19,251 bases of DNA from a virus (lineage: Duplodnaviria; Heunggongvirae; Uroviricota; Caudoviricetes). The stretch lies in the IMG/VR virus record IMGVR_UViG_3300037067_008629, positions 2,827 to 22,077 of that record; one strand, written 5' to 3'. Every line of letters starts with the position of its first letter. Position 1 is the first letter of the stretch. The position numbers and the translations under genes are program-made. Below, in pieces: positions 1,355 to 18,396 of this stretch. The notes under the pieces are model-generated. The model worked only from the letters and a program-made list of their open reading frames with translations. It was not told where the DNA came from and searched no databases.

Positions 1355-1908
1355 ACATACCTCTTAGTTGGAGTTTCAGACCAGCGATAACCTACATAAG
1401 GATTGTGCTGCTTAGGTTTACGCCACCATAAATCATCAGCGTTGTGATTTGCAATTCTTAAGTCTGACATTTCACAGTCTCGTAAAATAGGCAAATCCCA
1501 AGTCTGAAGAATATCATTTAAATCTTTTCGACAATATGGACAGCGACTTGCAAATTCAGCTTGGAAACCCTTGAGGAGCAATGCTGCACGGTGAGAACTA
1601 TGAAATGCATCGTCGCCGAGCCGTGGTGGTATCGGTGAATTCTTATCGGCATACATATCAAAATACTGCATTAGATTGTCATTATATCCTCTTTGTACCC
1701 ACTCAAAACTCATTGTATGCCCATAAAGAGCGAGTTGCCCCGCATATCCCACCCACATCTTAACGGCTGGATGATGTTGCCAAGCTGTTGATTGACCAAG
1801 TAATACTTGAAGAATCTGCTTGGCTTCAACTCGCTGTTTTCCAAGACGTTGACGATCAAGGATTTTGGCAGATTTAAGATAACCGGGATAAGGTAAAAAG
1901 GTTTGCAT
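1330..1908 (-). CDS. pyrimidine dimer DNA glycosylase / MSMEG_6728-like protein
   Basis: MQTFLPYP...LDRQRLGKQRVEAKQIL...W.HHPAVKMWVGY...EWVQRGY...SHRAALL...YVWP is the pattern of this family. Start set at ATG 1908 (MQTF), not TTG 1926. Confidence 0.85.
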   Translation of the reverse strand: MQTFLPYPGYLKSAKILDRQRLGKQRVEAKQILQVLLGQSTAWQHHPAVKMWVGYAGQLALYGHTMSFEWVQRGYNDNLMQYFDMYADKNSPIPPRLGDDAFHSSHRAALLLKGFQAEFASRCPYCRKDLNDILQTWDLPILRDCEMSDLRIANHNADDLWWRKPKQHNPYVGYRWSETPTKRYVWPTVQLS

Positions 1909-1942
1909 ATTAATACTATACCACAAATTTAGCGGTTGTCAA
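1909..1942 (-). promoter_or_regulatory. sigma70-type promoter, family copy A; predicted leaderless start
   Basis: TTGACA (1942-1937), 16-nt spacer ending TGTGG, TATAGT (1920-1915), 6 nt, then ATG 1908. The -35 overlaps the TGA stop of the upstream gene. Confidence 0.8.
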
Positions 1943-2328
1943 ATAAATAAATCCATAAATTTTTGAAGTCGCTTCTTACGGTGAATAAGTTCATCATCTG
2001 CTACTTTAGCCCGTAACTCATATTTTTCTCGCTTCTTTCGATCATTCGCGGCCTGTATATAAGCTATACAATGCTCTACCATTTCATCCCATGGGCCAAA
2101 ATCCCAATGTTCGCGTGGATCAAATATAAATTTGTTATGATACTGAAAAATAATCTCTAATTCATCGGTATCAGGATGAACAATCTTTACCTTAAATTCT
2201 TCAACCTCGTTGATTCGATGATAAAAGAACTTGAGACACCTTACTTTAAAACAGCCTTCTTCAATTAAAGGCAACGAGCCTAATTCAAAGCATTCTCGGA
2301 CAATATTGAATAATTCTTTTCGATTCAT
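1939..2328 (-). CDS. hypothetical protein
   Basis: ORF track 1939..2352. ATG 2328 (MNRKELF) forms an ATGA overlap with the upstream stop. Confidence 0.7.
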   Translation of the reverse strand: MNRKELFNIVRECFELGSLPLIEEGCFKVRCLKFFYHRINEVEEFKVKIVHPDTDELEIIFQYHNKFIFDPREHWDFGPWDEMVEHCIAYIQAANDRKKREKYELRAKVADDELIHRKKRLQKFMDLFI

Positions 2329-2600
2329 TGTTCTACCCCAATAATCGCCCACGGATAATCATCAATCCAAATATCAGGTATCCAGCCAATCTTTTTACAC
2401 GTTTCGTATTTTGAATTATGCCTACAGAAAATAACTTGTAAGCCTGTTTCTTTTTTAATTTCTCGCTCACTTTCAAACAAATAAAAACGTGACGTAACAA
2501 TCCTCACATCATATTGGTATTCTAAAAGAATAGCAATAATCTTACGCCACATTTCTGGACTAACTGTAAAAGTATCGTCGTAATCAAGTGCAATTTTCAT
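2325..2600 (-). CDS. HAD-superfamily hydrolase-like protein (minimal, phage type)
   Basis: MKIALDYDDT (motif I DxD), IVTSR (motif II), K, and WIDD (motif IV). Confidence 0.7.
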   Translation of the reverse strand: MKIALDYDDTFTVSPEMWRKIIAILLEYQYDVRIVTSRFYLFESEREIKKETGLQVIFCRHNSKYETCKKIGWIPDIWIDDYPWAIIGVEQ

Positions 2601-2851
2601 AGTATATCCAGTCCAAATTGTAACTGTTCACGTAACCATTCTTTAACCTTTGAGAGTATTATTCTCGGCTCTGTACCATGGGTAAATTGCATTAGATGAT
2701 GAGTATTGGGGTAGTCATGCCAACTAATATCAACAATAATTGGGTCATTTTCATCCCACCAGCCATCCGTCCAAATATAAAAAGGCCCAAAATGAAAACC
2801 ATCCATTAACTCTTTAGTAGTTATTGTTCGTGGCGTATCAGCGTATAACAT
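2597..2851 (-). CDS. hypothetical protein
   Basis: 84-aa ORF whose stop forms an ATGA overlap with the downstream gene. Confidence 0.65.
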   Translation of the reverse strand: MLYADTPRTITTKELMDGFHFGPFYIWTDGWWDENDPIIVDISWHDYPNTHHLMQFTHGTEPRIILSKVKEWLREQLQFGLDIL

Positions 2852-2853
2852 GA

Positions 2854-3066
2854 CTAATCTTCAAATATCAGTTGTTCAGTAAATAGATCAAATCGAACAC
2901 TTTGGTAAGCTTCGGCTTTAATCTCTTCAAATGACGGTAGGCCTGGTAACAATGCCGCTACAATTTTTGCCTTTGACTCTGACACTTCCTGCCAGAATTG
3001 TGTATAATTATCCCAAAGCCAGTAATTATCTCCAACGCATCTAATTATGTGATTATATTTTCGCAT
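2854..3066 (-). CDS. hypothetical protein
   Basis: ORF track 2854..3081. ATG 3066 (MRKYNH) matches the promoter-family geometry. Confidence 0.65.
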   Translation of the reverse strand: MRKYNHIIRCVGDNYWLWDNYTQFWQEVSESKAKIVAALLPGLPSFEEIKAEAYQSVRFDLFTEQLIFED

Positions 3067-3100
3067 ATTTAACTCTACCATATATTATACGTGTTGTCAA
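3067..3100 (-). promoter_or_regulatory. sigma70-type promoter, family copy B; predicted leaderless start
   Basis: TTGACA (3100-3095), 17-nt spacer ending TATGG, TAGAGT (3077-3072), 5 nt, then ATG 3066. Encoded in the last codons of the protease gene (LDNTYNIW*). Confidence 0.7.
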
Positions 3101-3689
3101 GTGCCTTTAATAGATTATCATGTCCTTTGATAGTTTTTAAAAATTCTCGCACCCGCAAGCAATGAGTACCATGGGCTCCAGTTTTATCTGATCCAAATAA
3201 AATAGCCGCTACTGTACCATCTTCATAGAATAGTGGACCACCAGAATCTCCACTTCTCGTGGAGACATCAATAGCCACCCAATCAGGTGTTGATGGTGCA
3301 AAAAAGCTCACAACCTTCCCAGTTGCTTCAGCATATTTATTGTAACCATAACCACAGACAGTAAGTTTATCGCCTATTTGTGGTTCTTTGTTGCTCAGTT
3401 GGGAAACCGGCAGTGTCTCATTTACTACCAATGCTGCTAGGTCCCAAGTCTGATCTTTAGCAATTACGGTAGCTGGTAAACCAGCTACCGTATAGGGGCC
3501 ACCATCCTTAATGACATGGTTAGCAGTTAGTATTAATGTCTGACCACTAGTTGTTGCCACCGATACTCCAGAGCCAAGAAAATTACCAGCTTGAATACGG
3601 TGGACTGTTGGGCGAGGATCACTAATCATTAAGTAAGCTAATACACCAATGATTAGTAGTGTCATTCCGGTATCAGTAACTTTTTTCAT
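3075..3689 (-). CDS. trypsin-like (S1) serine protease with N-terminal membrane anchor or signal
   Basis: Complete triad: LTANHV (His), DLAAL (Asp), GDSGGPL (Ser). Hydrophobic LLIIGVLAYLMI near the N-terminus. ATG 3689 preferred over GTG 3701. Confidence 0.9.
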   Translation of the reverse strand: MKKVTDTGMTLLIIGVLAYLMISDPRPTVHRIQAGNFLGSGVSVATTSGQTLILTANHVIKDGGPYTVAGLPATVIAKDQTWDLAALVVNETLPVSQLSNKEPQIGDKLTVCGYGYNKYAEATGKVVSFFAPSTPDWVAIDVSTRSGDSGGPLFYEDGTVAAILFGSDKTGAHGTHCLRVREFLKTIKGHDNLLKALDNTYNIW

Positions 3690-3691
3690 CT

Positions 3692-4227
3692 TTAGGTCCA
3701 CATATACGACTTAATAACTATTAAACGATGCAGATTCCTTTCTAACTCTTTTTCAACATCAGCATCAAGCTTCTGTAACTTCTTAAATCCATCAGATATG
3801 CTTGCTTGTCATCTTCTGTTGCCCATTGAGGGCACCATTCATCATACTCATCATTCATGGGCACCCAATCCACAACAGGATTGTGCTTTTCGATTTCTTT
3901 CCAAATCGCCTCACTATCAACTTCATATTGTTTGTTATAATAGTTATTCCACCAATCATATAACTCCTGCATTTCTTTACGAGCGGCCTTGTGATGCTCG
4001 GTTGCATCCCAATCAACGTTACCGGGTGAACATTCCTTCTCAATAAATTGAGATAGAATCTCAAACATCATATGTGGTAGCAATGAGCAACGGTCACACC
4101 AAGTATGTGGAAGATAACGTGGTTTGATCGTTGTATGCCGATGCCAGCAAAAACATTTGATACGATACCATATTTCGCCTAAACGCCAGTTGTAAGGAAT
4201 CTTACAATATAATTCTTTAAGTTTCAT
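3692..4227 (-). CDS. hypothetical phage protein with a -1 frame discontinuity near 3750-3790 (frameshift, indel or pseudogene)
   Basis: The 0 frame stops at TAG 3742. The -1 frame reads FKKLQKLDADVEKELERNLHRLIVIKSYMWT* to TAA 3692-3694, 2 nt before the protease ATG. Confidence 0.6.
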
Positions 4228-4411
4228 TTTTATCAGCCATCCAATTGTTGTGTTTTAAGTATAGCATCATTCTACGCTGTTTGTCCCAAATAAACACTTT
4301 GTATATACCCTGATTTTTTCTTAATACAATAAGAAAATCTTTGGCAGCTTGTTTATCATTAGTTGTCCAAGTATGCGTGACACCACCGACAAACCAAATT
4401 ACTACATACAC
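4217..4411 (-). CDS. hypothetical protein
   Basis: 64-aa ORF with a GTG start; overlaps both neighbours. Confidence 0.55.
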   Translation of the reverse strand: MYVVIWFVGGVTHTWTTNDKQAAKDFLIVLRKNQGIYKVFIWDKQRRMMLYLKHNNWMADKNET

Positions 4412-4599
4412 TTTGCTACCTCACAGTAAAAATTAGGGAACGCTTCGTTGCCAACAAGCGTCACTTCAGTTACTTGGCATGGCCACTGTATTTTATGCTC
4501 AAAAAGTTTTTGATAAAAAGAAATTTTCAACACATCCCCAACTTCTAAATGCGGAAGAGATGTCCAACTTGTAAATAGTGGGTATGTCTTAGTCGTCAT
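4402..4599 (-). CDS. hypothetical protein
   Basis: ORF track 4402..4653. Start moved to ATG 4599 (MTTKTYP), which has SD GGAG 7 nt upstream and avoids a long overlap with the 4589..4729 gene. Confidence 0.6.
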   Translation of the reverse strand: MTTKTYPLFTSWTSLPHLEVGDVLKISFYQKLFEHKIQWPCQVTEVTLVGNEAFPNFYCEVAKCM

Positions 4600-4729
4600 G
4601 ATATAGCTCCAACGCATAGCTATACCCGTCCCAATTATCCACTCCAGCGGCAATTAATGCGTCTAATAAACGCTCAGAGTCCATTAGGCGGTCATATTCG
4701 TCTTTTGAAATAGTTACTTCATCACTCAT
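4589..4729 (-). CDS. small phage protein with GVDNW motif (46 aa, absent from ORF track)
   Basis: MSDEVTISKDEYDRLMDSERLLDALIAAGVDNWDGYSYALELYHDD*. Strong SD AAGGAG. L.AL..AGVDNW.GY is a motif I recognise from small phage proteins. Confidence 0.85.
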   Translation of the reverse strand: MSDEVTISKDEYDRLMDSERLLDALIAAGVDNWDGYSYALELYHDD

Positions 4730-4881
4730 TTTATATACTCCTTGTACCAGCCACCCAGCATCAATGGCAATAGTTGTAAATACGCAAAACCATATAAACC
4801 ACAGTTAAAGAAATCATGTACTTCAACTATACTAGTTTTCCCCGCTTGAATACCAACGTCGAGTGTATAAGCCCAGGATAA
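4726..4881 (-). pseudogene. C-terminal fragment of an ATP-grasp (R2K/DUF4343-like) gene, no start codon of its own
   Basis: The open frame reads LSWAYTLDVGIQAGKTSIVEVHDFFNCGLYGFAYLQLLPLMLGGWYKEYIK*. AYTLDVG...EVHDFF.CGLYG resembles that family's C-terminus. Its TGA forms an ATGA overlap with the next gene. Confidence 0.55.
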
Positions 4882-5009
4882 TCATGTTCAATCCCAATAA
4901 ATGAATCATAGGTATCCCCGATACTAAAACCACCGTTTTTTGCAACAATAACATATCTGCCAATAATGTCTTCGATAGTATATTGATTAAATTTAGCTTG
5001 TTCCATCAT
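4827..5009 (-). CDS. hypothetical protein (60 aa); overlaps the ATP-grasp fragment
   Basis: SD GGAG and an ATGA overlap with the upstream gene. Confidence 0.6.
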   Translation of the reverse strand: MMEQAKFNQYTIEDIIGRYVIVAKNGGFSIGDTYDSFIGIEHDYPGLIHSTLVFKRGKLV

Positions 5010-5158
5010 TCTCTCCCGTCAAGTGCATTATGAACAACTAGTGGACCATCGGCATACGGTAGTCCATTTTCATCTAGCCATTCAACTCGTGGATCACACC
5101 AACAATCAGAGTTTTCTTGGTGTTCTCGTAAATCGTCAATTGGTAGCACATTTATCAT
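5006..5158 (-). CDS. small phage protein with H/C motif (50 aa, absent from ORF track)
   Basis: MINVLPIDDLREHQENSDCWCDPRVEWLDENGLPYADGPLVVHNALDGRE*. ATGA overlaps at both ends; the H...CWC...H residues suggest metal binding. Confidence 0.8.
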   Translation of the reverse strand: MINVLPIDDLREHQENSDCWCDPRVEWLDENGLPYADGPLVVHNALDGRE

Positions 5159-5988
5159 CGTGGCATCCTTACTACAGGGAGTCCGTCAAGAATCAGGTAA
5201 TTGGGTACATCATATTTATCGACAACAAGAACCACTTCTAATGCATACTTACAGATTTCAGCCATACCTTCATAATTGAGTTTGTCGGCCGTATCTGAAG
5301 CTTTATGATAATTTCGATGCAGCCCAGTATGCAAAAAGATTGCTGGAATCTTCTTTTCAAGAAACGATGCATTATCGCTACCTGGATCATTACGCAATGT
5401 CACTTGATTAGCAAATGGATACTTTTGAAACAATGGTTTCAGAAGACTCTCAATTTGTACCGGAGCCGTGAGTCCTGCCTTTAAATAGCCAATCATATCA
5501 ATATTGAGCATAAATAAATGCTTATCAATTGGCCACTTTGGGTTATCACAATAAAATTTAGACCCAATCAATTGCTGTTCTTCACCAGCATACAATTGAA
5601 AAGAAATAGTATGGCGTGTTGGGATATCCTTTAGCATTTTTGCTAACAACAGAACGCTCGCAGTACCGGAAGCATTATCATCAGCGCCTGGTGTGCCACG
5701 TACTGCGTCATAATGTGCCCCAATAACTATCACAGTATCTAATGCAGCAGTTTTAGTGGCAAGAATATTGCTTGCAGTCCAACGACCGTAAGTAAACTCT
5801 TGTGCTTCAACTGGGTATCCCAATCCGCTTAAGCGGGTTGTGAGATAATCAGCCGCTTCATTACAGCCTTTAGTGCCAGAAACACGCGACAAACTGGAAA
5901 GTTTAGTAACAGTTTCTCGAAGTTCTGGTGCTTGGCCGAAAACTGAGGTTGCGAATAAACATACAATAATAAATAGTAACTTTTTCAT
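5155..5988 (-). CDS. M28-family zinc peptidase with signal peptide
   Basis: GAHYD, GADDNASG, GEEQQLIGS, NIDMIG, SDNASF and YH motifs. N-terminal MKKLLFIIVCLFATSVFG is signal-like. Confidence 0.92.
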   Translation of the reverse strand: MKKLLFIIVCLFATSVFGQAPELRETVTKLSSLSRVSGTKGCNEAADYLTTRLSGLGYPVEAQEFTYGRWTASNILATKTAALDTVIVIGAHYDAVRGTPGADDNASGTASVLLLAKMLKDIPTRHTISFQLYAGEEQQLIGSKFYCDNPKWPIDKHLFMLNIDMIGYLKAGLTAPVQIESLLKPLFQKYPFANQVTLRNDPGSDNASFLEKKIPAIFLHTGLHRNYHKASDTADKLNYEGMAEICKYALEVVLVVDKYDVPNYLILDGLPVVRMPR

Positions 5989-6227
5989 TTCCCTTTCCTC
6001 ATTTTGATTTCATTACGATAAACGGCTTGTTTTGCGTCTGCGATAGCTTGGTCAGTGAGTAGACGCTTTATTCTAAGATCATTTATATCTAGGCCATACA
6101 TATCGGCAAAATTTGGCAACTCTTTAAGGCAGGCTCGTACATTTTTATACTCGCAAAAAATCTGACTAGCTTCCCAAGTATCCCTCTTAATCTCTAACAA
6201 TAATCGTGGCGTCCTAAATTCATTCAC
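5985..6227 (-). CDS. hypothetical protein
   Basis: 80-aa ORF tightly overlapping both neighbours. Confidence 0.65.
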   Translation of the reverse strand: MNEFRTPRLLLEIKRDTWEASQIFCEYKNVRACLKELPNFADMYGLDINDLRIKRLLTDQAIADAKQAVYRNEIKMRKGK

Positions 6228-6423
6228 CGTAACTCTCCATTTTTGTGAGTATTTTAAAACCGTTCTTTAATAGTATCATAGCTTCTCTAGGTGTTATTCG
6301 CTTAGCACGAAAATCTAAACCTAAGTCTTGTAGTAATTGAAGGTGTGATTGGAAAGGGCCATGTAATAAATACCCAGCCGATAACCAATGGCAATTTACA
6401 TTTCTTTCTAAGTGGTAGTACAT
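6220..6423 (-). CDS. hypothetical protein
   Basis: ORF track 6220..6477. ATG 6423 (MYYHLE) sits 1 nt after the endonuclease stop. Confidence 0.55.
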   Translation of the reverse strand: MYYHLERNVNCHWLSAGYLLHGPFQSHLQLLQDLGLDFRAKRITPREAMILLKNGFKILTKMESYGE

Positions 6424-6424
6424 A

Positions 6425-6820
6425 TTAAGATATAAGGTACTCTTTCCATTTATGACCAACATCAATTGTTGCAGCATTATCTTTTAATTGTGATGTAGGT
6501 ATTAAATATTTCTCACCCGTATCTGTCAGAATAAATAAAAGTTCGCTAGTCGTTTTATCAAAATAATGAGAAATTCCAGACCAACTTTGATTTCCACCAT
6601 TTGTCTTTAAAATTACAGTAAAACTACCTGAAGCCCTTCTATTAGTCGAGGTTTTAACTTGCACTCGCTGTAAATTCTTATCTTTTTCCACTATTAAATC
6701 ATAGCGTTGACTTTCTGATATTGGTATACTAACAGAATAGTCATTATTCATAAACCAACTAATAGCAACACCTACGCCAATGTCGCCTTGTTTTCTAGGA
6801 TTTGATCGTTTAATAGTCAT
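6425..6820 (-). CDS. PD-(D/E)XK endonuclease, I-Ssp6803I / PDDEXK_5-like (putative free-standing homing endonuclease)
   Basis: KQGDIGV...VSIP...RYDLIVE...RVQVKT is the PD-(D/E)xK pattern typical of the group I intron-associated family. Confidence 0.8.
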   Translation of the reverse strand: MTIKRSNPRKQGDIGVGVAISWFMNNDYSVSIPISESQRYDLIVEKDKNLQRVQVKTSTNRRASGSFTVILKTNGGNQSWSGISHYFDKTTSELLFILTDTGEKYLIPTSQLKDNAATIDVGHKWKEYLIS

Positions 6821-6822
6821 AG

Positions 6823-6904
6823 TGGGTTAGGTAAGAATCGAACTTACTCTCCGCTATTGCGGGCTTGATTTACAGTCAAGTTCTCGGCCATCGAGAGCTA
6901 ACCC
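6823..6904 (-). tRNA. trnY: tRNA-Tyr(GUA), type II with long variable arm; CCA not encoded
   Basis: Acceptor stem GGGTTAG/CTAACCC plus A73; D stem CTCG/CGAG; anticodon arm CTTGA-CTGTAAA-TCAAG; variable hairpin CCGC-AATA-GCGG; T arm GTAAG-TTCGATT-CTTAC. Confidence 0.93.
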
Positions 6905-6952
6905 AGGGCTCATACGTTGTCATTCCGGCCGCTGACGCCCATCCGACCGTCA

Positions 6953-7330
6953 TCAATTGAACAGTTTGAGGTATGAAAGAACCAACCCGATGATAAATCC
7001 TACTGCCGAGCCAACTAGCACCCTAGCGACAAGGGCACGATCAGAATTATCAAAGTTGTCACAGATACTAAGCCTCTGTACAGGCACTTCATCCGCCTCT
7101 TGCATAAGCCCAAGTGCTTCCTTCCACTCGTCTGGTATCTCAGATTCAGTTACCTCTTGACCTAAATCTGAGACTTGAAAAACTTGGTCGGTAATCTTGC
7201 CAGTGGCATCGGGACCCAAGCCACAAACCAAGACGCTTGGTGATACTCGTGAGCCACGTACATAAATTGCCTTTGTAGGATAGACAACAGCGTATTCGCT
7301 ATTTGTAGTTTTATAATATTGTTTACGCAT
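6953..7330 (-). CDS. hypothetical protein with C-terminal transmembrane helix
   Basis: 125-aa ORF ending LVARVLVGSAVGFIIGLVLSYLKLFN. Confidence 0.7.
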   Translation of the reverse strand: MRKQYYKTTNSEYAVVYPTKAIYVRGSRVSPSVLVCGLGPDATGKITDQVFQVSDLGQEVTESEIPDEWKEALGLMQEADEVPVQRLSICDNFDNSDRALVARVLVGSAVGFIIGLVLSYLKLFN

Positions 7331-7331
7331 A

Positions 7332-7673
7332 TTAATTTGCTAAACTAAAAATTTCCTCAAAAACGCGAGAAACCTTAACTGGTCCATGGACCAAGATAGC
7401 CTGTAATACTCTATCCATAATATAACATTTTAAAGAGGTTGTAAAATGTGTGTTATTAGGGCCACCTACAAAATTTATCATCATCGGTGATGTATCAATA
7501 TTATGTGTGCCCATCTTATAAAACTGAACAAGTTTTCTTAAGGTACATTTACCTTGCTTACCAATAATGATAAATTCATCACCAGTCATTTCCAGTGAGT
7601 TTAACAAGATATAGGCGTCCACTAGTATCATATCTGCCAGTAGATTCTCAATAGCCCACAAATGTCCTTTCAT
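7332..7673 (-). CDS. hypothetical protein
   Basis: 113-aa ORF with an ATGA overlap to the upstream gene. Confidence 0.7.
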   Translation of the reverse strand: MKGHLWAIENLLADMILVDAYILLNSLEMTGDEFIIIGKQGKCTLRKLVQFYKMGTHNIDTSPMMINFVGGPNNTHFTTSLKCYIMDRVLQAILVHGPVKVSRVFEEIFSLAN

Positions 7674-7936
7674 ATCGACAGCATCCTCGAATGATTATCA
7701 TAAGCATCCAATGCTGCTAAAACATTTGGAATTGATTCTTTGTACTCTGGATGGTCTTTTACTATATCAAGTAGCCAAATAGCACAGTCTCGTGCTGCGT
7801 TCATTAGATTTTTACCGACACCTTTGACACTAGGCTTATAGCAAGTCGATACCATATAGTGTCCGTTCGCTCGGATATCAACCCGAATGCCCCCTTGAGC
7901 TTGTGCTAAAGCATTTAGTAGTTCTGCTTCTCTCAT
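7670..7936 (-). CDS. hypothetical protein
   Basis: 88-aa ORF; ATGA overlap with the def stop and a promoter-family copy directly upstream. Confidence 0.7.
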   Translation of the reverse strand: MREAELLNALAQAQGGIRVDIRANGHYMVSTCYKPSVKGVGKNLMNAARDCAIWLLDIVKDHPEYKESIPNVLAALDAYDNHSRMLSI

Positions 7937-8340
7937 ACTATAATCCTAGCACATATTTCTTGGTTTGTCAAGTCCCACGGTAATTTTCCATTTAAATGAT
8001 CCATTTCATGCTGTATAATAAACGCTTGTTGCTCAGCAAATACCCCCTCAGAAGTACTAATACGATTATATCGTTTACGAGTATAATCTACATTAGGAAG
8101 ACTGAGACACCCTTCATCTACATTTACTTCTTCTGAATAGTCATAAATAACAAGATTCTGAAATACTTGACCCCATGAGGTTACAAATAAATGTGCATCT
8201 AAACCAACTTGATTCGCAGCTAAGGCTATTCCACCTGACTGCCCTAATAGTATAAACATTTGATTAATTGTCTTTTGAGAGACAACAGCCCGTTTACACT
8301 TCATTAATAGAGCAGGGTCTGGATAAGTCAGTATTTGCAT
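7933..8340 (-). CDS. def: peptide deformylase (compact phage type)
   Basis: Motif 1 GIALAANQVG, motif 2 EGCLS, motif 3 QHEMDHLNG. Confidence 0.93.
   Translation of the reverse strand: MQILTYPDPALLMKCKRAVVSQKTINQMFILLGQSGGIALAANQVGLDAHLFVTSWGQVFQNLVIYDYSEEVNVDEGCLSLPNVDYTRKRYNRISTSEGVFAEQQAFIIQHEMDHLNGKLPWDLTNQEICARIIV
7937..7971 (-). promoter_or_regulatory. sigma70-type promoter, family copy C; predicted leaderless start
   Basis: TTGACA (7971-7966), 17-nt spacer ending TGTGC, TAGGAT (7948-7943), 6 nt (TATAGT), then ATG 7936. Encoded in the def C-terminal tail LTNQEICARIIV*. Confidence 0.7.
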
Positions 8341-8374
8341 ATTATAATTATACCACAGATTTTACGGTTGTCAA
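8332..8374 (-). repeat. 43-bp direct repeat, copy 1 (promoter D plus ATG CAA ATA of def)
   Basis: Checked base by base: identical to 9641-9683, with mismatching flanks on both sides. Confidence 0.97.
8341..8374 (-). promoter_or_regulatory. sigma70-type promoter, family copy D; predicted leaderless def mRNA
   Basis: TTGACA (8374-8369), 16-nt spacer ending TGTGG, TATAAT (8352-8347), a second TATAAT, then ATG 8340. Confidence 0.85.
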
Positions 8375-8520
8375 ATAGGTTGCATTTTATGCTGTTCTCT
8401 ATATTGTTGAATATGTAATTTTATATACTCAAGATGATACCACCTTGCGTCAATTGGTGGCCTATCAACAAATTCTAATGCCGATAGGTTTACACACTGC
8501 CTTTTCAATTGGTATGCCAT
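8371..8520 (-). CDS. candidate 49-aa protein overlapping the 3' end of the repeat gene (absent from ORF track)
   Basis: MAYQLKRQCVNLSALEFVDRPPIDARWYHLEYIKLHIQQYREQHKMQPI*. SD AGAGGA 6 nt upstream; the TGA stop lies within the -35 of promoter D. Confidence 0.4.
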   Translation of the reverse strand: MAYQLKRQCVNLSALEFVDRPPIDARWYHLEYIKLHIQQYREQHKMQPI

Positions 8521-9598
8521 TATTTATCCTCTGTCTAAGCATAGTTGTTGTGACTTGACAACGTAAATCTCTTGATACTGAACCTAGGGATGGGAACCAT
8601 TCTCCCCAAACAAAAAACTTTTTCTGTCGGCCCACTGCTCTATTTACTGCTTCATGGAGTGGTATACCCCTCTGGATTCTACCTCTAAGATTATCTAGAG
8701 ATACTTGACAACGAGCATCTTCTGCAACACATCGTAAAGAAGGGAACTTTTTGTTCCAGACAAAAAATCCAACTGACTTAGCAACTGGCTTAGCAACTGG
8801 CTTAGCAACTATTGACCTATTTTTTACTCTATGGCAAAGTGTGGTATAGGATACTTGACAGCGTGGGTCCTTAGCAACTTCTGCTAAAGAAGAAAACCAT
8901 TCTCCCCAGACTAAAAACTTTTCTTTTTGAATATTCTTCTGAGTTGCTTCTTCAAGTGTCAATCCATTATGGAATCTACGCCAAAGTGTTGTAAAAGATA
9001 CTTGACAACGTGGGTCTATAGATATAGCTTTTAAAGAAGGAAACTCTTTTCCCCACACAAAAAATGTTTCTTTTTTAACTGCCTCTTCGATTGTAATATT
9101 TTGTTTCATTCTATGTTTCAAGGTATCATAGGTTACTTGACATCTTGAATCATTTGCAATTGCTGTTAAAGATGGAAACTGTTCCTCCCAAACTGTGTAA
9201 AATTTTCCTAATCTGCCTATCCTGGGATTAAGAGCTTCTTCAATAGATAATCCATACTTGAGCCGTTTATACAATTGTTTGCTTGTAATTTTACATCTTG
9301 AGTCATTTAATACTGCTGTAATTGATGGAAATTTTTCACCCCAAACAACACACTCTCTACGTCTATTTTGATTTTTTACAGCTTGCTCAATTGTAACACC
9401 TTTTTGGACTTTTTGACACAGAGTTATATAATGAACCTCACACCGGCTGTCTTTGGCAATAGCATTTAATGATGAAAACCATTCATTCCAAACAAAAAAT
9501 CTATTAACCTTTAATTGAGTACTTTTAACTTCAGTACTAGGAATAGTTGCACAAGGTATTTTCTGTAATAAATTATCAGGTATTTTAATCGCTGGCAT
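8465..9598 (-). CDS. tandem-repeat protein with seven ~45-50-aa HTH-like modules; putative DNA-binding protein
   Basis: Consensus F-x-V-W-G-x-x-F-P-S-L-x-x-V/I-x-x-D-x-R-C-Q-V-S/T-x-x-x-L-x-x-R-x-x-x-G-x-x-x-E-x-A-V occurs 7 times. The CQV codons recur at 135-150 bp spacing (8555, 8705, 8855, 9002, 9137). Confidence 0.85.
   Translation of the reverse strand: MPAIKIPDNLLQKIPCATIPSTEVKSTQLKVNRFFVWNEWFSSLNAIAKDSRCEVHYITLCQKVQKGVTIEQAVKNQNRRRECVVWGEKFPSITAVLNDSRCKITSKQLYKRLKYGLSIEEALNPRIGRLGKFYTVWEEQFPSLTAIANDSRCQVTYDTLKHRMKQNITIEEAVKKETFFVWGKEFPSLKAISIDPRCQVSFTTLWRRFHNGLTLEEATQKNIQKEKFLVWGEWFSSLAEVAKDPRCQVSYTTLCHRVKNRSIVAKPVAKPVAKSVGFFVWNKKFPSLRCVAEDARCQVSLDNLRGRIQRGIPLHEAVNRAVGRQKKFFVWGEWFPSLGSVSRDLRCQVTTTMLRQRINNGIPIEKAVCKPIGIRIC
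8777..8810 (+). repeat. 12-bp tandem repeat (about 2.8 copies) encoding VAKP VAKP VAKS
   Basis: cttagcaactgg cttagcaactgg cttagcaact. Confidence 0.95.
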
Positions 9599-9616
9599 AA
9601 TATTTTGCCTTATGAA

Positions 9617-9649
9617 TTATTTATCAAATACATGCACAAATATTTGCAT
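9617..9649 (-). other. 10-codon upstream mini-ORF MQIFVHVFDK
   Basis: Starts at the ATG inside repeat copy 2 and shares its first three codons with def. Ends TAA 9619-9617, 18 nt before the repeat-protein ATG. Confidence 0.55.
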
Positions 9650-9683
9650 ATTATAATTATACCACAGATTTTACGGTTGTCAA
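9641..9683 (-). repeat. 43-bp direct repeat, copy 2 (promoter E plus ATG CAA ATA)
   Basis: Identical to 8332-8374; offset 1,309 bp. Confidence 0.97.
9650..9683 (-). promoter_or_regulatory. sigma70-type promoter, family copy E
   Basis: Same sequence as copy D. Encoded by the last codons of the 9657..9947 gene (LTTVKSVV*), whose TAA lies in the -10. Confidence 0.85.
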
Positions 9684-9948: not shown

Positions 9949-10809
9949 TTAGACTCCTACTGGTGGACTAACATTATAACGACTATGTACAACACCTAAT
10001 TCACCCGACCCTCTTTGGTGTTGTGGAACCCAGAATCGACCATAGACTCCACGGCCAAACATTCCAGGACCATCTTCCTTATAATGCATAAAATGCCCAC
10101 GACAAATATGCAATCGTTGTTGAATATCAGTTGAAGTTGGATTTGGATTTCGTCTGATTGTCGTTGGCTGAATATTTATCGTATGGTAAGAAACTTGCGG
10201 TACTTTGGTTCTACGATACCATTTTGCTGGTTGTGCATATTCATCTGTATCGTCTTGAATGGTAACATTCTTGCAATTCATAAATGATAAAGTATGTGCA
10301 ATAACACATGGTATACTAAAGGAAGTATCTTTATTACGAACTACACCCAGTATACTACCATTTGAATCTAGGCCAATTACAAATTCGCATCCAATAGTTG
10401 AAATTCTATTATTGACAAAATGAAATACAAATCCGCGAAGTTCACATTGTGTCTCTGGAGGTAGATTCTTAGTTAAATGTTTATTGACTAGTACTAGAAG
10501 CACACCAACTTGCGATGTATTTTGTCCTGACTTTATACCCTCTATTGGATCATAATTATTAATCCACTCAATAAAACATGCTTCAAATGGAGGTTTACCA
10601 CATCCCTGTCTTATATCATAGGCACTCAAAGGCTTATCTGCTGGAAATAAATACTTCTCAATATTATCAGCTATAATTATAGGTAAAGTATTTTTTTGTA
10701 GTCCAGTTATAAAGCTATGCATAATTTTTTCCCAAGTTGGATTATCAGCCAATTCTTTGGGTTGAAACGTACTTTTTTGTAATAAAATTCTATCAGCTAA
10801 TCTCAACAT
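9949..10809 (-). CDS. conserved-looking phage hypothetical protein
   Basis: 286 aa with SD GGAG. The C-terminal RLHICRGHF.HY...FWVP.H.RG..E.G.V...Y motif is recognisable from uncharacterised phage proteins. Confidence 0.8.
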   Translation of the reverse strand: MLRLADRILLQKSTFQPKELADNPTWEKIMHSFITGLQKNTLPIIIADNIEKYLFPADKPLSAYDIRQGCGKPPFEACFIEWINNYDPIEGIKSGQNTSQVGVLLVLVNKHLTKNLPPETQCELRGFVFHFVNNRISTIGCEFVIGLDSNGSILGVVRNKDTSFSIPCVIAHTLSFMNCKNVTIQDDTDEYAQPAKWYRRTKVPQVSYHTINIQPTTIRRNPNPTSTDIQQRLHICRGHFMHYKEDGPGMFGRGVYGRFWVPQHQRGSGELGVVHSRYNVSPPVGV

Positions 10810-11353: not shown

Positions 11354-11511
11354 TGAACTGCCTTTGAGGTTGCTTTGTAAACATCGGTCATCCCTTGATT
11401 ACCAATAGCCATACCACACAAAAAACTACCTCTTGTAATTCCCCAAAGAATTCCAAGACCCAGAATGGGTACTACATAACAAACCATCAAACATTTTAGA
11501 ATTATATTCAC
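11350..11511 (-). CDS. small membrane protein
   Basis: ORF track 11350..11553. GTG 11511 forms a GTGA overlap with the nrdJ stop; the N-terminal half is hydrophobic. Confidence 0.55.
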   Translation of the reverse strand: MNIILKCLMVCYVVPILGLGILWGITRGSFLCGMAIGNQGMTDVYKATSKAVQ

Positions 11512-14500
11512 GAGCAACCTCCTGAAGAACCACACCCATAACACAGGTAACAACTACCAACCCGTACACAGAGTTGGCCACAATTATCACAGATTGGTGC
11601 ATCTAGCGTACCAACTGAGGGACTATTTACATCTACTGGAATATTAGTTGTAAAATGATTTGCCAACCAGCGGAAAATATAATCAACAATTGACTTAGCA
11701 ATCTTTATATCTTTATTTTTCGTAAAGCCCATGGGCTCAAAACGTACATGAGTAAACTTATCAATAAATTCGCTCAGAGGTACACCATACTGTAGGCCAA
11801 TTGAAGTTGCCAGTCCAAAGCAATCAAATATACCGCCTAATGTACTCCCTTCTTTGGCTACTGATATAAAAATCTCTCCAGGTTTACCATCGGGATACAA
11901 ACCTACTGTGAAATAACCTTTATGGCCATCAATAGTAAACTTGTGTGTGATACTCTCCCGAGTATCAGGCAAACGATTCCGGATGCTAGTAGGGAGCAAT
12001 TCTTTCTTAATATTTAATGGCTGATAACCTTTGCTACCATCACGATAAATGGCCATTGACTTTAAACCTAGTTTCCAACCCAGCATATAAGCTTCTTGAA
12101 TATCGTCAATCGTTGAATCAGTTGGCATATTGATTGTCTTTGAGATTCCACCACTTAAAAATGGTTGTGCTGCTGCCATCATTTTTAGATGTGCTTGCCA
12201 AGGAATCTGATTATCTCCCAAGGAAGTTGCAAATACTTTTAATTCACTATTGGTTAAATACGGGTCTCCGATTAAAGTTTCAGTTGTTTCTAAGCGACTT
12301 AAAATACTTGTTTGTAGCTGTTCACTAATTCCTAAGGACCTCAGCCCCGCTTCTACAGATTGATTTACAAGCTTCAATGTACCACCACCAACAAGCGTCT
12401 TAGTTTTCACTAACGCAAGCTCTGGTTCAATTCCAGTTGTATCGCAATCCATTAGGAAACTAATGGTTCCAGTTGGAGCACAAAGAGTTACTTGCGAGTT
12501 ACGAAAGGACTTACAGACTAAAACTTCTTGCCATAAATTATCAGTGCCAATAGTTTGCGGATTTGCAGCAGCGTGCTTTTTTAATACTTTACCCATACTA
12601 ACTTTATCATAGGCTTCAAATGCTCCAAGTTCTTTCGCTATTTCTGCACTGGTCAAGTATGCCCTAGCAGTAAGAGTTGATGTAATCTTGCTGCAGAGTT
12701 GTCGCGATTCGTCCGAGTCATACGGTAACCCCATTGACATCAAAAGAGCACCAAGATTTGTAAATCCAAGACCTAATTGTCGGCAAGTATGTGCATTTCG
12801 GGCAATCTCTTCAAGTGGATAACTTGCCTGATCTACTAAGATATCTTGTGCAATAATAAGAATTCTTACAACTTTTTGAAACGTATCGTAATCAAATTGA
12901 CCATTCTTAAGAAATTTCAATAAGTTTATAGATGCCAAGTTACAGGCTGAACCGTTAGGTGCTAGAAATTCTGAATTATGCACCACAAGTCCATGTCTAT
13001 TACCAGAAGATGATACTACAAAATTATGTGTCCCTTCGACTTCCATATCATAGACTGGTACTCTTTTTTCTAAATGAATAAAGTCAACATTTTCGACTAC
13101 ATCATTTGTTAAATCTCTATTTTCATTAACCCATTGACAAAGTTCGGACCAACTTTGCCCTTGAATTGATTTACAATTAGCGGTGGGTAAGATATTGCTT
13201 AATTTCCATAGTTTTATATATTTATTCCAAAGAGCGGCACTAACATACCCATACATATCTTCAATAGTTTCATAGAATTCTACTAATGCTTCTGGTTCTA
13301 CATTAAGATAACGTGGATTATTCTTTCCCTTGGAATGCCCAGATAAATGTAAAAATTTTGATTTTAATTGTAAGTTTGAAAAACTATAGTTCTCAAGACT
13401 TTCATCAATATGATGGACGTGATAGTCATTAGAGACTGTGGTTCCTGTCGTCTGTTCATAAACAAAACGATGTAAATACTGACAACCATTAGGATGCTGT
13501 TTGGTACATTTATGATTTAACATTAAAACACCACGTCTACGTGGATTTTCTTTGATACTTAGTTTCTTGAGTCGATGCCCCGGCCTCAAATATTTTGCTT
13601 CTAATGTGTCTCCTTGGCGGGTGTAGAATAAATGTTCCGGCGTACAAGTTACAACAATACCCTTATTCGTAGTTACTTTAATTAAATTCTGTGTATATCC
13701 TGATCGCCAAATACGTTTTATTGTTTTTAGTACTGGTAAATTGGTGTCTAAATCATAGCTGAATACTTTTATATTATTTGCCCGCTTTTTAACCAGTTGA
13801 TTAAATGTTAGTTTACCTTCATTTGTGATGATTTCCGTGTCACCTGTGAAGCAACACGGATTTGAAGAATTGATTCTACCAACATGTGGTACAGTATTAT
13901 AATTATTGATAGTAGTTGAATACTGAACACCCGGATCACCACAGAGCCACGTACTCTCAGCAATCTTCTTCCATAAATCTCGTGCTTTAAATACTGGTCC
14001 ATTTTGTCCAGTAGTTACCCATTTAGTCACCCACTCCGTATCATTCTTAACAGCTTGCATAAATTCATCAGAAATTTGAATGCTAATATTCATATTCTGA
14101 TACATAACGGATTTTGCTGCCCGCTCTGGAGTTACACCACTCGCAATTAATAATCTTGCATGGGCTTCTTCTTCAGCTTTGCAGCTAATAAACTTATCAA
14201 TATCTGGGTGGTCAATGTTGAGACAATGTAACAATGCTGCCCTGCGAGTCCGACCTGCTGAAGTTACAACCTCTGCAACTTGGTCATAGATTCTCATAAA
14301 ACTAAGTGGACCAGATGAATGGCCACCGCCACTAATACCCTCGCATGTTGCACGTAATGGAGATAAGTTTGTACCTGTTCCAGAGCCAAACTTAAATAAC
14401 ATAGCATCGGTCTGAGCCAGGCCCATGATGCTATCCATATTGTCCTCAACGCCTTGGATAAAACAAGCAGAACCTTGTGGGTATTCAAATGGATTCTGAC

Positions 14501-14927
14501 AAGGTTCGACCTGCTGAGATTCCTTATTCCAATACCAATTACATGGCTCACCTATGACTCCATATTTTTGATAGAGTCCTACATTAAACCACACAGGTGA
14601 ATTAAATGCACAGTATTGATGCAATAATAACCATGTTAAATCATCACAAAACTCTGTACTATTTTCAAAGTAGCCATCTTCTACGCCCCATTGTGAAATT
14701 GTATCCGCAACTCTTGAAACTAATTGCTGGATGCTTGTTTCTCGGTCTGGAGTTCCAATTGCACCGTAGAAATATTTACTGGCAGCAATATTTACCGCCA
14801 TTTGAGACCAGCTGCTAGGTGCAAGAACATTTTCTTGTCGAAAAATTACCTTATCACCCTGCTTTATTTCAGCAGTCCTCTTTTCCCAAGTAATCGGTTC
14901 GCCACTAAATTGTCGCTCGTAATTCAT
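11508..14927 (-). CDS. nrdJ: adenosylcobalamin-dependent (class II) ribonucleotide reductase with intein
   Basis: AFNSPVWFN, SACFI, GSGTG, NPC|SE, ACNLASINL and APTGTISF motifs; TSCPD-like C-terminal domain and terminal Cys cluster; SD AAGGA. Confidence 0.96.
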   Translation of the reverse strand: MNYERQFSGEPITWEKRTAEIKQGDKVIFRQENVLAPSSWSQMAVNIAASKYFYGAIGTPDRETSIQQLVSRVADTISQWGVEDGYFENSTEFCDDLTWLLLHQYCAFNSPVWFNVGLYQKYGVIGEPCNWYWNKESQQVEPCQNPFEYPQGSACFIQGVEDNMDSIMGLAQTDAMLFKFGSGTGTNLSPLRATCEGISGGGHSSGPLSFMRIYDQVAEVVTSAGRTRRAALLHCLNIDHPDIDKFISCKAEEEAHARLLIASGVTPERAAKSVMYQNMNISIQISDEFMQAVKNDTEWVTKWVTTGQNGPVFKARDLWKKIAESTWLCGDPGVQYSTTINNYNTVPHVGRINSSNPCCFTGDTEIITNEGKLTFNQLVKKRANNIKVFSYDLDTNLPVLKTIKRIWRSGYTQNLIKVTTNKGIVVTCTPEHLFYTRQGDTLEAKYLRPGHRLKKLSIKENPRRRGVLMLNHKCTKQHPNGCQYLHRFVYEQTTGTTVSNDYHVHHIDESLENYSFSNLQLKSKFLHLSGHSKGKNNPRYLNVEPEALVEFYETIEDMYGYVSAALWNKYIKLWKLSNILPTANCKSIQGQSWSELCQWVNENRDLTNDVVENVDFIHLEKRVPVYDMEVEGTHNFVVSSSGNRHGLVVHNSEFLAPNGSACNLASINLLKFLKNGQFDYDTFQKVVRILIIAQDILVDQASYPLEEIARNAHTCRQLGLGFTNLGALLMSMGLPYDSDESRQLCSKITSTLTARAYLTSAEIAKELGAFEAYDKVSMGKVLKKHAAANPQTIGTDNLWQEVLVCKSFRNSQVTLCAPTGTISFLMDCDTTGIEPELALVKTKTLVGGGTLKLVNQSVEAGLRSLGISEQLQTSILSRLETTETLIGDPYLTNSELKVFATSLGDNQIPWQAHLKMMAAAQPFLSGGISKTINMPTDSTIDDIQEAYMLGWKLGLKSMAIYRDGSKGYQPLNIKKELLPTSIRNRLPDTRESITHKFTIDGHKGYFTVGLYPDGKPGEIFISVAKEGSTLGGIFDCFGLATSIGLQYGVPLSEFIDKFTHVRFEPMGFTKNKDIKIAKSIVDYIFRWLANHFTTNIPVDVNSPSVGTLDAPICDNCGQLCVRVGSCYLCYGCGSSGGCS
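12975..13853 (-). mobile_element. intein with HNH endonuclease in NrdJ (293 aa, residues 359-651)
   Basis: Begins CFTGDT and ends VYDMEVEGTHNFVV...VVHN, followed by Ser. Block B CTPEHLF; HNH-type LHRFVYE...VHHIDE..EN....NL. Confidence 0.95.
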
Positions 14928-15257: not shown

Positions 15258-16883
15258 TTATTCCAAATTAATTTGTAAAAGTTGATCGCCAAATACCGCA
15301 GGTAATGCTTTACCAAATTCTATTAGCACACCTTGCATTAACTGTCGAATTTGCCACTGTGCATGTTTATTCAAAGCTCTTTGAATAAAAATTGACCTCC
15401 ATTGACGTAGATTAGCTGTCATTACGATTTCAGTTTTAGTAGCATTAGGAAGACATTCACGAGCATCTTCTGGTGGAATACCTTTCTTAAGATAATATAA
15501 ATACTCCAGATAATTATCTGCACGACTAGCAAGCCACGTCCTACTTGGTCCAGTAAACCAATTATCTGGATACTTTTCTAAGAATTTATCATCCATATAA
15601 AAATTAAAGGTATTAACATCCAAAAAATGATAAGGACCACAGGGGATTCCAATCTTTGGTGGGCATATTACTTGAAAACCTTTTTTAGAGTAATTTACAA
15701 ATCTCTGTGATTCTTGGCAATTGTGGACAACAAAACCATTGGCGACAAAATTATGCCAAGGTGCTTCCATTTCAATATCATATGTCTCAGTTACTTTGTC
15801 AGGAATAATTGAGATTATGGTGTCTGAAAATACAGATTGTACGGCCTGACCGAAGTGAAATTGTTTATGACAGGGCTCGCAAAGAATACAAATATTGTCG
15901 GGCGTGTTATTTAAAGTATCTCCATCTTTATGGTGTCTAACAAGTCTCGCCTCTGTGGTGCCACAAGTAAAACATTGAATTGCCTTATATAATCTATTAG
16001 CCCGACAACGACCTGACATTGGTGTAGCATTCTCGCCCTTCCACATTGGGTTTTTAGCACCCAAATGTATTTTTGATAAATATTCAATAGCCTCAGGGGA
16101 AAACATTCCCTTTGTGCCATGTCCAGGGCGTCTATTAGGCCGCATTGAATGTGGCTTTTGTAAACCAAAATGACGTAACCATTTTCCGAGAAAAGATTCA
16201 CTCACTCCCGCTTTTTTAGCTACTTCTGCTCGGGTTAAATTTTGTCTAAGATAAAGATTTTCCAACCATTCTTTATTTTTGTAAGCCAAAAGTCCGTTAG
16301 CAATAATCTTATCTCCGGGCTTTAATTGTGAGAGTTTTTTCCACCCATTAGGCGTCAAAAATCTATGGTTAGCTGTTGCTCGAATATCTCGGCCAAATTC
16401 AGAAGTCACTTTATAGACTTGTTGCCGTCCACTATAGCTAATAGACTTTATTCCATTGGCAATTAAAACCCCCTCCGAATTCACACTTCGTAATTTAATT
16501 AGTTTTAATCGTCCTTTTCTCTTTGGATCAAGAGACATGTTATAAAGCTGTTCTAAAGTCCAACGTTTTGCATGGTGTCGTTTCGCACTAGGCATTGATA
16601 CCACAGTAGTATCTCCGGCGAGACAATATGAAGCAATTCTATGCCGAACGAGTTGATGGCTCATTGACCGTGAGCCAATAATTCGTACACTTGCTGAAAC
16701 ATGCTCTAATACACTATCATGCCCTAAATCTCGAATCATTTTAACAAACTTAGATGCTGAATCATTAGTGATTCTATCTTCACTTTTATAGGCCGTTCTA
16801 CCCGCTAACTCCAATAACTTCAAATGCTCATCATTTAGTGGAGTTAAAATCTCAATTCTCGGTGGAACTACTGTTATTAACAT
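15258..16883 (-). CDS. thyX: FAD-dependent thymidylate synthase with intein
   Basis: GH.SVLEH, the RHR-X7-S motif (RHRIASY|CQES), EDARECLP...TEIVMTANLRQWR and HAQWQIR. Confidence 0.95.
   Translation of the reverse strand: MLITVVPPRIEILTPLNDEHLKLLELAGRTAYKSEDRITNDSASKFVKMIRDLGHDSVLEHVSASVRIIGSRSMSHQLVRHRIASYCLAGDTTVVSMPSAKRHHAKRWTLEQLYNMSLDPKRKGRLKLIKLRSVNSEGVLIANGIKSISYSGRQQVYKVTSEFGRDIRATANHRFLTPNGWKKLSQLKPGDKIIANGLLAYKNKEWLENLYLRQNLTRAEVAKKAGVSESFLGKWLRHFGLQKPHSMRPNRRPGHGTKGMFSPEAIEYLSKIHLGAKNPMWKGENATPMSGRCRANRLYKAIQCFTCGTTEARLVRHHKDGDTLNNTPDNICILCEPCHKQFHFGQAVQSVFSDTIISIIPDKVTETYDIEMEAPWHNFVANGFVVHNCQESQRFVNYSKKGFQVICPPKIGIPCGPYHFLDVNTFNFYMDDKFLEKYPDNWFTGPSRTWLASRADNYLEYLYYLKKGIPPEDARECLPNATKTEIVMTANLRQWRSIFIQRALNKHAQWQIRQLMQGVLIEFGKALPAVFGDQLLQINLE
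15720..16625 (-). mobile_element. intein with HNH endonuclease in ThyX (302 aa, residues 87-388)
   Basis: Begins CLAGDT and ends TYDIEMEAPWHNFVANGFVVHN, followed by Cys. Block B ATANHRF; HTH-like LTRAEVAKKAGVSESFLGKWLR; HNH C..C...RHHKDGDTLNN..DNI..LC..CH..FH. Confidence 0.95.
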
Positions 16884-17930: not shown

Positions 17931-17931
17931 A

Positions 17932-18396
17932 CTAATTATATAACCTCAATAATTTCTTGTGTAAACTTCCAGGTGACTCACGATTATCTAATGATTTAAT
18001 CCGCCCAGACTTTTCAATTACATTTCCAACATATTGTGAACAGAAAATCCCACGAGTATCATTTGACCACCAACCTCGCAGCCGATACGGCCGACCCAGC
18101 TGAGCGGTTGCATATGCTAGCATTGCTGTAATTTCACTTGTAGTATATGCAACTTTGGGTTGCATACTAAACCATGAAAAATTACGCCGCTGCCAAAAGC
18201 CCGATCTCTCTAAAGTACCTAAATGGGCCTGATAAGCAGAGAGTTCTAATTTTCTAACCTTAGGTGGTGTTGCCTCATAAACAATACCACTAAATACAAT
18301 AGCCACATGAGTTAATAAACTGCCCGTATTATTGCTAATTGGCCCCACTAACAAGCCACCCTTCCAAAAGATAACTGAACCATCACACATTATCAA
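17932..18396 (-). CDS. permuted papain-like NlpC/P60 protein (YiiX/YaeF type)
   Basis: THVAIV (His) precedes YEA...LGRPY...IFCSQYV (Cys), the circularly permuted order of this family. The start may be ATG 18390. Confidence 0.8.
   Translation of the reverse strand: MIMCDGSVIFWKGGLLVGPISNNTGSLLTHVAIVFSGIVYEATPPKVRKLELSAYQAHLGTLERSGFWQRRNFSWFSMQPKVAYTTSEITAMLAYATAQLGRPYRLRGWWSNDTRGIFCSQYVGNVIEKSGRIKSLDNRESPGSLHKKLLRLYN

Follow-up and report, generated by a model that had tools for sequence, protein, structure and literature searches.

Why should several promoters of one phage each end only five or six nucleotides (nt) before an ATG? The question is raised by a 19,251-nt stretch of DNA, the window, which comprises bases 2827-22077 of the IMG/VR virus record IMGVR_UViG_3300037067_008629 (Caudoviricetes), a single contig of 86,077 bp with 38% G+C. 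Five such promoter copies, A to E, lie on the minus strand of the window (Table 1), and a first-pass annotation had described them as a family written into gene 3' ends, each copy giving a leaderless mRNA. Comparison with the whole record and with its relatives suggests that the copies belong to a larger sigma-70/sigma-A promoter family, a subset of which is placed for a leaderless start at the ATG; taken as a whole, we consider this reading probable. The genome is compact: crude calling gave ~135 open reading frames (ORFs), of which 127 are on the minus strand, and 96% of the DNA is covered.

Promoter copies and their distance to the start codon

Direct reading of the sequence places TTGACAA at 1942, 3100, 7971, 8374 and 9683, each time followed by a 16- or 17-nt spacer ending in TG and one further base, and by a TAnnnT box. 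The hexamers score 10-12 of 12 against the sigma-70/sigma-A consensus. Counted from the first T of the -35 element, the A of the start codon lies 35 nt away in copy C and 34 nt away in the other four. The gap between the -10 element and the ATG amounts to 5 nt in B and 6 nt elsewhere; these positions and spacings, and the extended -10 TG (at -15/-14) of all five copies, agree with the first description. An ORF begins at once downstream of every copy. Those opened by the ATGs of A, B, C and D encode 70-192 amino acids (aa), and genes A, B and def (gene D) have homologues in related genomes, in which no homologue of gene C was found. Promoter B sits within the 3' end of a trypsin-like protease gene. 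A weaker candidate near the far end of the window is doubtful because GAGG is present in its spacer.

Table 1. Promoter copies, the genes they adjoin and the duplicated unit, in window coordinates
Feature	Coordinates	Strand	Remarks
Gene A, pyrimidine-dimer DNA glycosylase, 192 aa	1330..1908	-	Pfam PF03013, E 7e-23; residues 1-79 align with profile 1-77
Promoter A	1909..1942	-	TTGACA, 16-nt spacer with TG, TATAGT, 6 nt, ATG at 1908
Gene B, 70 aa, no assigned function	2854..3066	-	ORF
Promoter B	3067..3100	-	TTGACA, 17 nt with TG, TAGAGT, 5 nt, ATG at 3066
Conserved 113-aa gene	7332..7673	-	ATGA-coupled behind gene C here
Gene C, 88 aa	7670..7936	-	between promoter C and the conserved 113-aa gene; ATGA overlap at both ends
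Gene D (def), peptide deformylase, 135 aa	7933..8340	-	Pfam PF01327, E 9e-20; residues 2-125 align with profile 3-150
Promoter C	7937..7971	-	TTGACA, 17 nt with TG, TAGGAT, 6 nt, ATG at 7936; entirely within the last codons of def
Promoter D	8341..8374	-	perfect TTGACA, 16 nt with TG, TATAAT, 6 nt, ATG at 8340
Repeat arm 1	8332..8374	-	exact 43-nt direct repeat, from the -35 T through the third def codon
Cassette, 1,266 bp	8375..9640	-	between the arms; carries the 377-aa protein
377-aa protein	8465-9598	-	six to seven repeats of ~50 aa (150-nt DNA period)
Repeat arm 2	9641..9683	-	exact 43-nt direct repeat
Promoter E	9650..9683	-	same sequence as D; followed only by a 10-codon relic ORF (9649-9617 including stop)
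Weaker candidate	17931..17963	-	TACACA, 17 nt, TATAAT, 4 nt, ATG of a 140-aa gene; doubtful

The motif is not a chance occurrence. A pattern search returned 3 matches against 0.27 expected, and the 86-kb genome as a whole contains six instances of TTGACA-N13-15-TGN-TANNNT, each on the coding strand: copies A-E and one further copy at tRNA-Ile(UAU). Among 47 coding-strand promoter-like sites, an ATG stands 4, 5 and 6 nt past the -10 element in 4, 4 and 8 cases, respectively, against ~0.5 at each other offset; the corresponding counts on the non-coding strand are 0, 1 and 1. Offsets 5 and 6 together are occupied 12 times, compared with a mean of 1.7 in second-order Markov shuffles. A genome-wide scan had been proposed as a check on the first-pass annotation, and in the 86-kb genome ATG is indeed strongly over-represented 4-6 nt past promoter-like -10 boxes.

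The five copies are thus real, but they are not a family of five: D and E are one exact 43-nt repeat rather than independent instances, and the family is larger. This genome contains at least seven leaderless-type junctions (promoter, short gap, ATG) with real ORFs, together with the copy adjoining tRNA-Ile. A looser scan located further long-ORF junctions at genome positions 32249 (DNA methylase, 248 aa), 26238 (161 aa) and 23030 (112 aa). Clade-wide, that is, over this genome, a 175-kb IMG/VR phage (G001) and three metagenome contigs (L058, L066 and L067), 32 leaderless-type junctions were counted. The start codon is ATG in all 32 and is preceded by T at -1 in 30; the gap from the -10 element is 5-6 nt in 30 junctions and 7 nt in the other two. 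A second sub-type, TTGACT-N16-TATAAT followed by an invariant AGAGT and the ATG (5-nt gap), is represented at least eight times in the clade, at 23030 of this genome (G000), at 6197 of L058 and at several places in G001.

G001 was recovered with the reductase as query. This IMG/VR contig, which has 175,377 bp and a rating of complete, shows collinearity over the first 36 kb of the present genome, with amino-acid identities of 45-80%, and the 86-kb record may therefore be a fragment. Strict promoter matches in G001 number 25, of which 23 are on the coding strand, and the reversed-pattern control gives 0. Ten strict matches have exactly 6 nt to an ATG; nine of these open ORFs of 86-498 aa, including the orthologues of gene A and of the methylase, and one adjoins tRNA-like sequence. 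The remaining strict matches are followed by leaders of 17-50 nt, several with AGGAG/GGAGG sites, and most copies without the 6-nt distance cluster at 124-142 kb, with ATTAAT upstream. In that region of G001 (loci L009-L021) there are ~14 copies, nearly all after ATTAAT, many with a conserved TGTAATGTTCGG... leader or with small ORFs led by a Shine-Dalgarno (SD) site; the cluster looks like an early host-takeover region.

The junctions are kept at orthologous genes. The metagenome contig L058, whose reductase is 84% identical, retains those of the 161-aa gene, the 112-aa gene, def and the C promoter, and L066 and L067 have one junction each. Orthologous junctions with a 5-6-nt gap are found at gene A, the DNA methylase, the 112-aa gene and the 161-aa gene, and those at def and the 113-aa gene are conserved as well. 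The gene A orthologue in G001 retains promoter, 6 nt and ATG, and the def orthologue in L058 has a matching promoter-ATG junction. Between orthologous copies the spacers differ, whereas hexamers, TG, spacing and ATG persist, as would be expected if selection acted on promoter function and on where the start lies. No relatives were found with the 377-aa repeat protein as query, only G001 with an alignment of the 113-aa gene, one distant contig (L001, motif absent) with a 277-aa protein, and 20 loci with the methylase, where G001 alone has the promoter.

At least 119 stretches of IMG/VR match the consensus promoter when it is followed by 5 nt and TATG, and a control shifted by 3 nt returned 113, two counts that are not comparable; only the shares of long ORFs differ, an ORF of at least 60 codons following the ATG in 61% of the listed matches vs 36% for the shifted control. 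From this share, the layout extends past the present clade.

The sixth strict copy of this genome lies at genome 1180-1288, ~1.5 kb before the window start, upstream of tRNA-Ile(UAU) and without an ATG, which shows that the promoter as such does not include the ATG. This copy has the extended -10 TG, and transcription from it is predicted to start (+1) 2 nt ahead of the 5' end of the mature tRNA. The syntenic promoter of G001 adjoins a degenerate tRNA-like sequence, with tRNA-Ile next to it. Precursors of tRNA-Ile made from these promoters would be nearly leaderless, and the phage appears to tend to put functional RNA ends at the predicted start site. In the unrelated viral contigs of IMG/VR loci L082, L091, L098 and L129, the same consensus promoter stands 6 nt before ATGCATCAGTAGCTCAATTGG, which looks like a tRNA start 2 nt past the predicted +1.

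Predicted leaderless starts

How would such a promoter be used? The copies are probably the main promoter type of the phage for the host housekeeping (sigma-70/sigma-A) RNA polymerase, with a consensus made up of TTGACAA, a spacer of 16-17 nt that ends in T(G/A)TGn, the -10 box TATAAT and a discriminator rich in AT/AG. Some of the copies would have the A of the ATG as their preferred start, which is the seventh base past the -10 element and a purine flanked by pyrimidines. The transcript would then begin at the AUG and be translated without an SD site, presumably by direct binding of 70S ribosomes to the 5'-terminal AUG. The genes expressed in this manner would be A, B, C and D in the window, encoding the DNA glycosylase (A) and the deformylase (D), and at least three others in the genome; the same promoter type would also serve tRNA precursors and mRNAs with SD sites. 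That the promoters are active, that +1 lies exactly at the A and that translation is leaderless are all predicted here from the motifs and their conservation.

A survey of 49 bacteria describes the dominant promoter as a 5-bp discriminator followed by a 3-bp pyrimidine-purine-pyrimidine (YRY) start element centred on the transcription start site (PMC12641261). Given that architecture and the 6-nt gap, T(-1)A(+1)T(+2) of the T-ATG would be the start element, with +1 on the A. The start codons of gene A and def are fixed independently by homology, since their Pfam profiles align from residue 1 and residue 2, respectively, and neither has an SD site upstream. Between the predicted +1 and the ATG there is no room for one, as no bases intervene. 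The statement that most other genes use SD sites or coupling holds: an SD-like site precedes ~75 of 127 coding-strand ORFs, and most of the remaining ones look coupled. GTG or TTG starts are used by 10 of the 75 SD-led genes, and ATG by every leaderless-type junction. Leaderless mRNAs are accordingly favoured by the comparative evidence for A, B, C and D but not for E, the next gene of which, encoding the 377-aa protein, starts 51 nt past the ATG of E, leaving a 51-nt leader and the relic ORF.

Several observations weigh against this reading. The promoter-adjacent genes could also be read from longer read-through transcripts. The -10 boxes of B (TAGAGT) and C (TAGGAT) are weak, and the B promoter is found only in this genome, the gene B orthologue of G001 having no promoter and different neighbours. 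Distant phages carry an orthologous methylase or 277-aa gene without the motif, and the feature is therefore confined to a narrow clade. Around gene B, the small genes after the protease (window 2325-3701; G001 3796-5718) have the same orientation in both genomes, and their order is B/84/91/137 aa here and 137/91 aa/B in G001.

The overlap of the copies with upstream stop codons, which had been noted as a feature of the family, is present as described, but as a separate design it does not stand and is mostly a by-product of the motif letters. Stops are built into the motif, with TGA of TTGACA in one frame and TAA of TATAAT in another, and the third frame gains a TGA when the ATG is followed by an A; any such promoter must therefore close two of the three reading frames that enter it from upstream. 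In the 32 junctions, the upstream ORF ends at a built-in stop in 16, elsewhere in the promoter in 7 and at most 42 nt before it in 9. The ORF that ends in the -35 element of D has merely 49 codons and overlaps the end of the 377-aa gene. For the most part, then, the overlap would follow from insertion of the motif into a compact, 96%-coding genome; with nearly all genes on one strand, the promoter would occupy the end of the gene ahead of it, usually supplying that gene's stop with its own TGA or TAA.

Gene gain at the junctions and alternative explanations

Copy E would be the by-product of an insertion. The cassette between the two repeat arms is absent in L058 and in one X1 contig; L058 has a single promoter, with the upstream flank of E on one side and def directly downstream, and the X1 contig joins 9909 to 8376 via 20 other letters. 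The ancestral state is therefore one promoter before def, and the cassette is an insertion. The 1.3-kb cassette may have entered at the def promoter, leaving the promoter and three codons on both sides, the outcome expected when a circle integrates by way of the shared 43 bp. The 377-aa protein has weak PHROG matches to HNH-endonuclease families over residues ~101-177, and no Pfam domain was found in it. In one X3 contig (depth ~3), 9640 runs straight into 8332 through the repeat. A circle or a tandem copy would explain this join, and so would an assembly artefact; it was not accepted as proof of circularity, the 43-nt repeat being longer than the 31-nt assembler word and the depth being ~3.

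Two other genes, inserted independently, occupy places exactly at promoter-ATG junctions. Gene C is absent in L058, G001 and L066, and contigs that skip its region are seen in X1 (7670-7932) and X4 (7676-7938). In L058 and G001, the orthologous C promoter is followed directly by the 113-aa gene's orthologue, and a similar junction precedes that orthologue in L066; the 113-aa gene is thus of leaderless type, from a C-type promoter, in the relatives and ATGA-coupled behind gene C here. G001 has a 130-aa gene in such a position, with a conserved promoter before it and the 161-aa gene's orthologue after it. Gene C, the 130-aa gene and the cassette together indicate that new genes have arrived repeatedly at promoter-ATG junctions, where the newcomer would take the leaderless start and the resident gene would become coupled. 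The def region of G001 differs further: its 5' junction has other genes and no promoter, and at 11440-11520 (locus L028) def is reduced to a 38-codon ORF joining N- and C-terminal codons, with the tail-embedded promoter intact.

The copies had also been proposed to be homology joints for the shuffling of gene modules, an idea that the comparison partly supports. The promoter early stem-loops (PeSLs) of T4-type phages, sigma-70-like promoters joined to terminator stem-loops (PMC2839356, PMC4122927), are documented to recombine and to form mini-circles (PMC2839356), and it is possible, although we regard it as rather doubtful, that the copies serve chiefly as recombination joints or as mobile regulatory cassettes of this kind, their spread and conservation being due to modular shuffling and leaderless expression being incidental. 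That proposal draws strength from the cassette with its exact 43-bp direct repeat and from the relatives and contigs that skip these units, from the exact placing of gene C here, and of the 130-aa gene in G001, between a promoter and a gene that are both conserved, from the promoterless 5' junction of def in G001, and from the X3 join, which a circle or tandem copy would give; end points of insertions and deletions between related genomes fit promoter copies at three junctions. The X3 contig is the one circle-like contig, and its join may be an artefact (k = 31 over the 43-nt repeat at ~3x). The stem-loop of the T4-type elements is absent, however: in the 70 nt preceding each of A-E, folding is no stronger than in shuffled sequence (z -0.8 to +1.5), and a weak hairpin with a T-run is seen at B alone, 46 nt upstream. 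Most copies share polymerase-contact positions only and differ in their spacers, which leaves little homology for recombination, and the strict 5-6-nt gap and the T at -1 are left unexplained. Such joints are compatible with leaderless promoters rather than exclusive of them.

Tentatively, and with more doubt than confidence, the arrangement of stop codon(s), promoter and ATG may be viewed as a gene-capture site, at which incoming genes would integrate exactly at +1 through recombination between promoter copies, perhaps as small circles with one promoter copy each, giving a leaderless newcomer and an ATGA-coupled resident. If true, the site would be a stem-loop-free counterpart of PeSL shuffling, driving gene turnover in the clade.

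It is unlikely that the promoters are real and the genes are nevertheless translated mainly from polycistronic read-through RNA, by coupling or re-initiation, with the spacing a matter of compaction. A genome that is 96% coding on one strand, upstream stops within or shortly before the promoters, and ~44 genes without SD sites, mostly coupled-looking, are what such a scheme would produce. Compaction permits any spacing, yet other copies of the family have 17-50-nt leaders, several with clear SD sites, and the leaderless-type junctions hold to their narrow gap and to T at -1. Coupling in A and D would have to bridge the ~30 nt from the upstream stop to the ATG, a long distance for it, and the exclusive use of ATG at these junctions differs from the start codons of the SD-led genes.

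That the motifs are functionless chance or compositional matches in AT-rich DNA has next to no probability: weak matches are common (93 promoter-like sites in the window by a simple consensus scan vs 66 in shuffles), but the confinement of strict genome matches to the coding strand, the reversed control in G001, the ATG spacing peak well above shuffles and the retention of motif positions at orthologous genes refute it in practice.

Known systems and genomic neighbourhood

The lambda cI mRNA from PRM is made from a sigma-70 promoter that starts on the A of the AUG, and its translation needs the 5'-terminal AUG. In contrast to cI and other single leaderless genes of phages and transposons, the design is repeated here, in at least seven genes of this genome and at least 19 of G001. 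The early promoters of large lytic phages such as T4, T5 and SPO1 form near-consensus families for the host polymerase in which bases outside the hexamers are conserved too; they cluster in early and nucleotide-metabolism regions, and some serve tRNA genes. The present family resembles them in its near-consensus sequence, in its extra conserved bases, in its clustering and in the copies at tRNA genes; to our knowledge, the T4, T5 and SPO1 promoters are followed by leaders with SD sites, and a fixed 6-nt distance to the ATG is not a described feature of them.

The host phylum of the Thermus phages makes wide use of leaderless mRNAs, and middle and late promoters of these phages reportedly lack a -35 box, as in YS40 and P23-45. 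In phiYS40 and Lalka27a, the RNA 5' end of many genes is the A or G of the initiator codon, and the host RNA polymerase is used; the predicted starts on the A of the ATG, with the host RNA polymerase as the predicted enzyme, would be alike in this. Unlike those phages, this one has a full consensus -35 element and an extended -10 element, and leaderless starts would form only part of the family, in a genome dominated by SD-led genes. Most transcripts of the Thermus phages YS40 and Lalka27a are reported to be leaderless (bioRxiv 10.64898/2026.04.20.719267). A phage transcriptome paper describes phage transcripts as 'often leaderless', and phiKZ has no leaderless transcripts.

The likeness to T4-type PeSLs lies in the repetition of strong, sigma-70-like early promoters among small variable genes, in gene gain and loss at the copies, and in a duplication-flanked unit that could form a circle. 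The differences are that no stem-loop terminator is attached here, that the copies overlap coding sequence instead of occupying intergenic spacers and directly adjoin the start codon, and that homology between copies is mostly limited to polymerase-contact positions. The system does not represent a new kind; it is a clear and extendable case of strategies already known, in a phage clade that is new.

The sequence rule of a promoter, 5-6 nt and T-ATG would fix start codons and transcription units in an uncultured clade of 86-175-kb phages. Gene callers that expect SD sites will misplace these starts, and the ORF lists do open A and B at an upstream TTG or ATG inside the promoter. One promoter family would serve SD-led, coupled and leaderless initiation in a single phage; possible reasons for such mixed use are the saving of space, escape from control directed at mRNA leaders, and translation under altered host initiation. 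Since new genes are seen at the junctions, the connection of promoter repeats with modular evolution can be tested in phages other than the T4 type. The IMG/VR scan suggests that the layout occurs in many other phage contigs, where it may be under-reported rather than rare.

Metagenome DNA runs holding the sequence come from groundwater, landfill and bioreactor samples; no RNA runs holding the window sequence are listed, and the reference phage collection has no near-identical or close record. The genes around the motifs include the pyrimidine-dimer glycosylase, the trypsin-like protease, the peptide deformylase and a class II ribonucleotide reductase, and PHROG annotation of the large proteins gives replication genes only, with no clue to the host. 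ARAGORN and Rfam report no RNA genes over the window, including 6823-6904 (-), which is syntenic to a tRNA-Tyr found by ARAGORN at 10353-10438 of G001. The thymidylate synthase ORF at 15258-16883 (-) encodes 541 aa, with HNH-endonuclease-like matches at ~195-355, and its G001 counterpart 239 aa; the reductase at 11508-14927 (-) has 1139 aa, and 1285 aa in G001. These size differences suggest intein or endonuclease insertions that differ between the phages.

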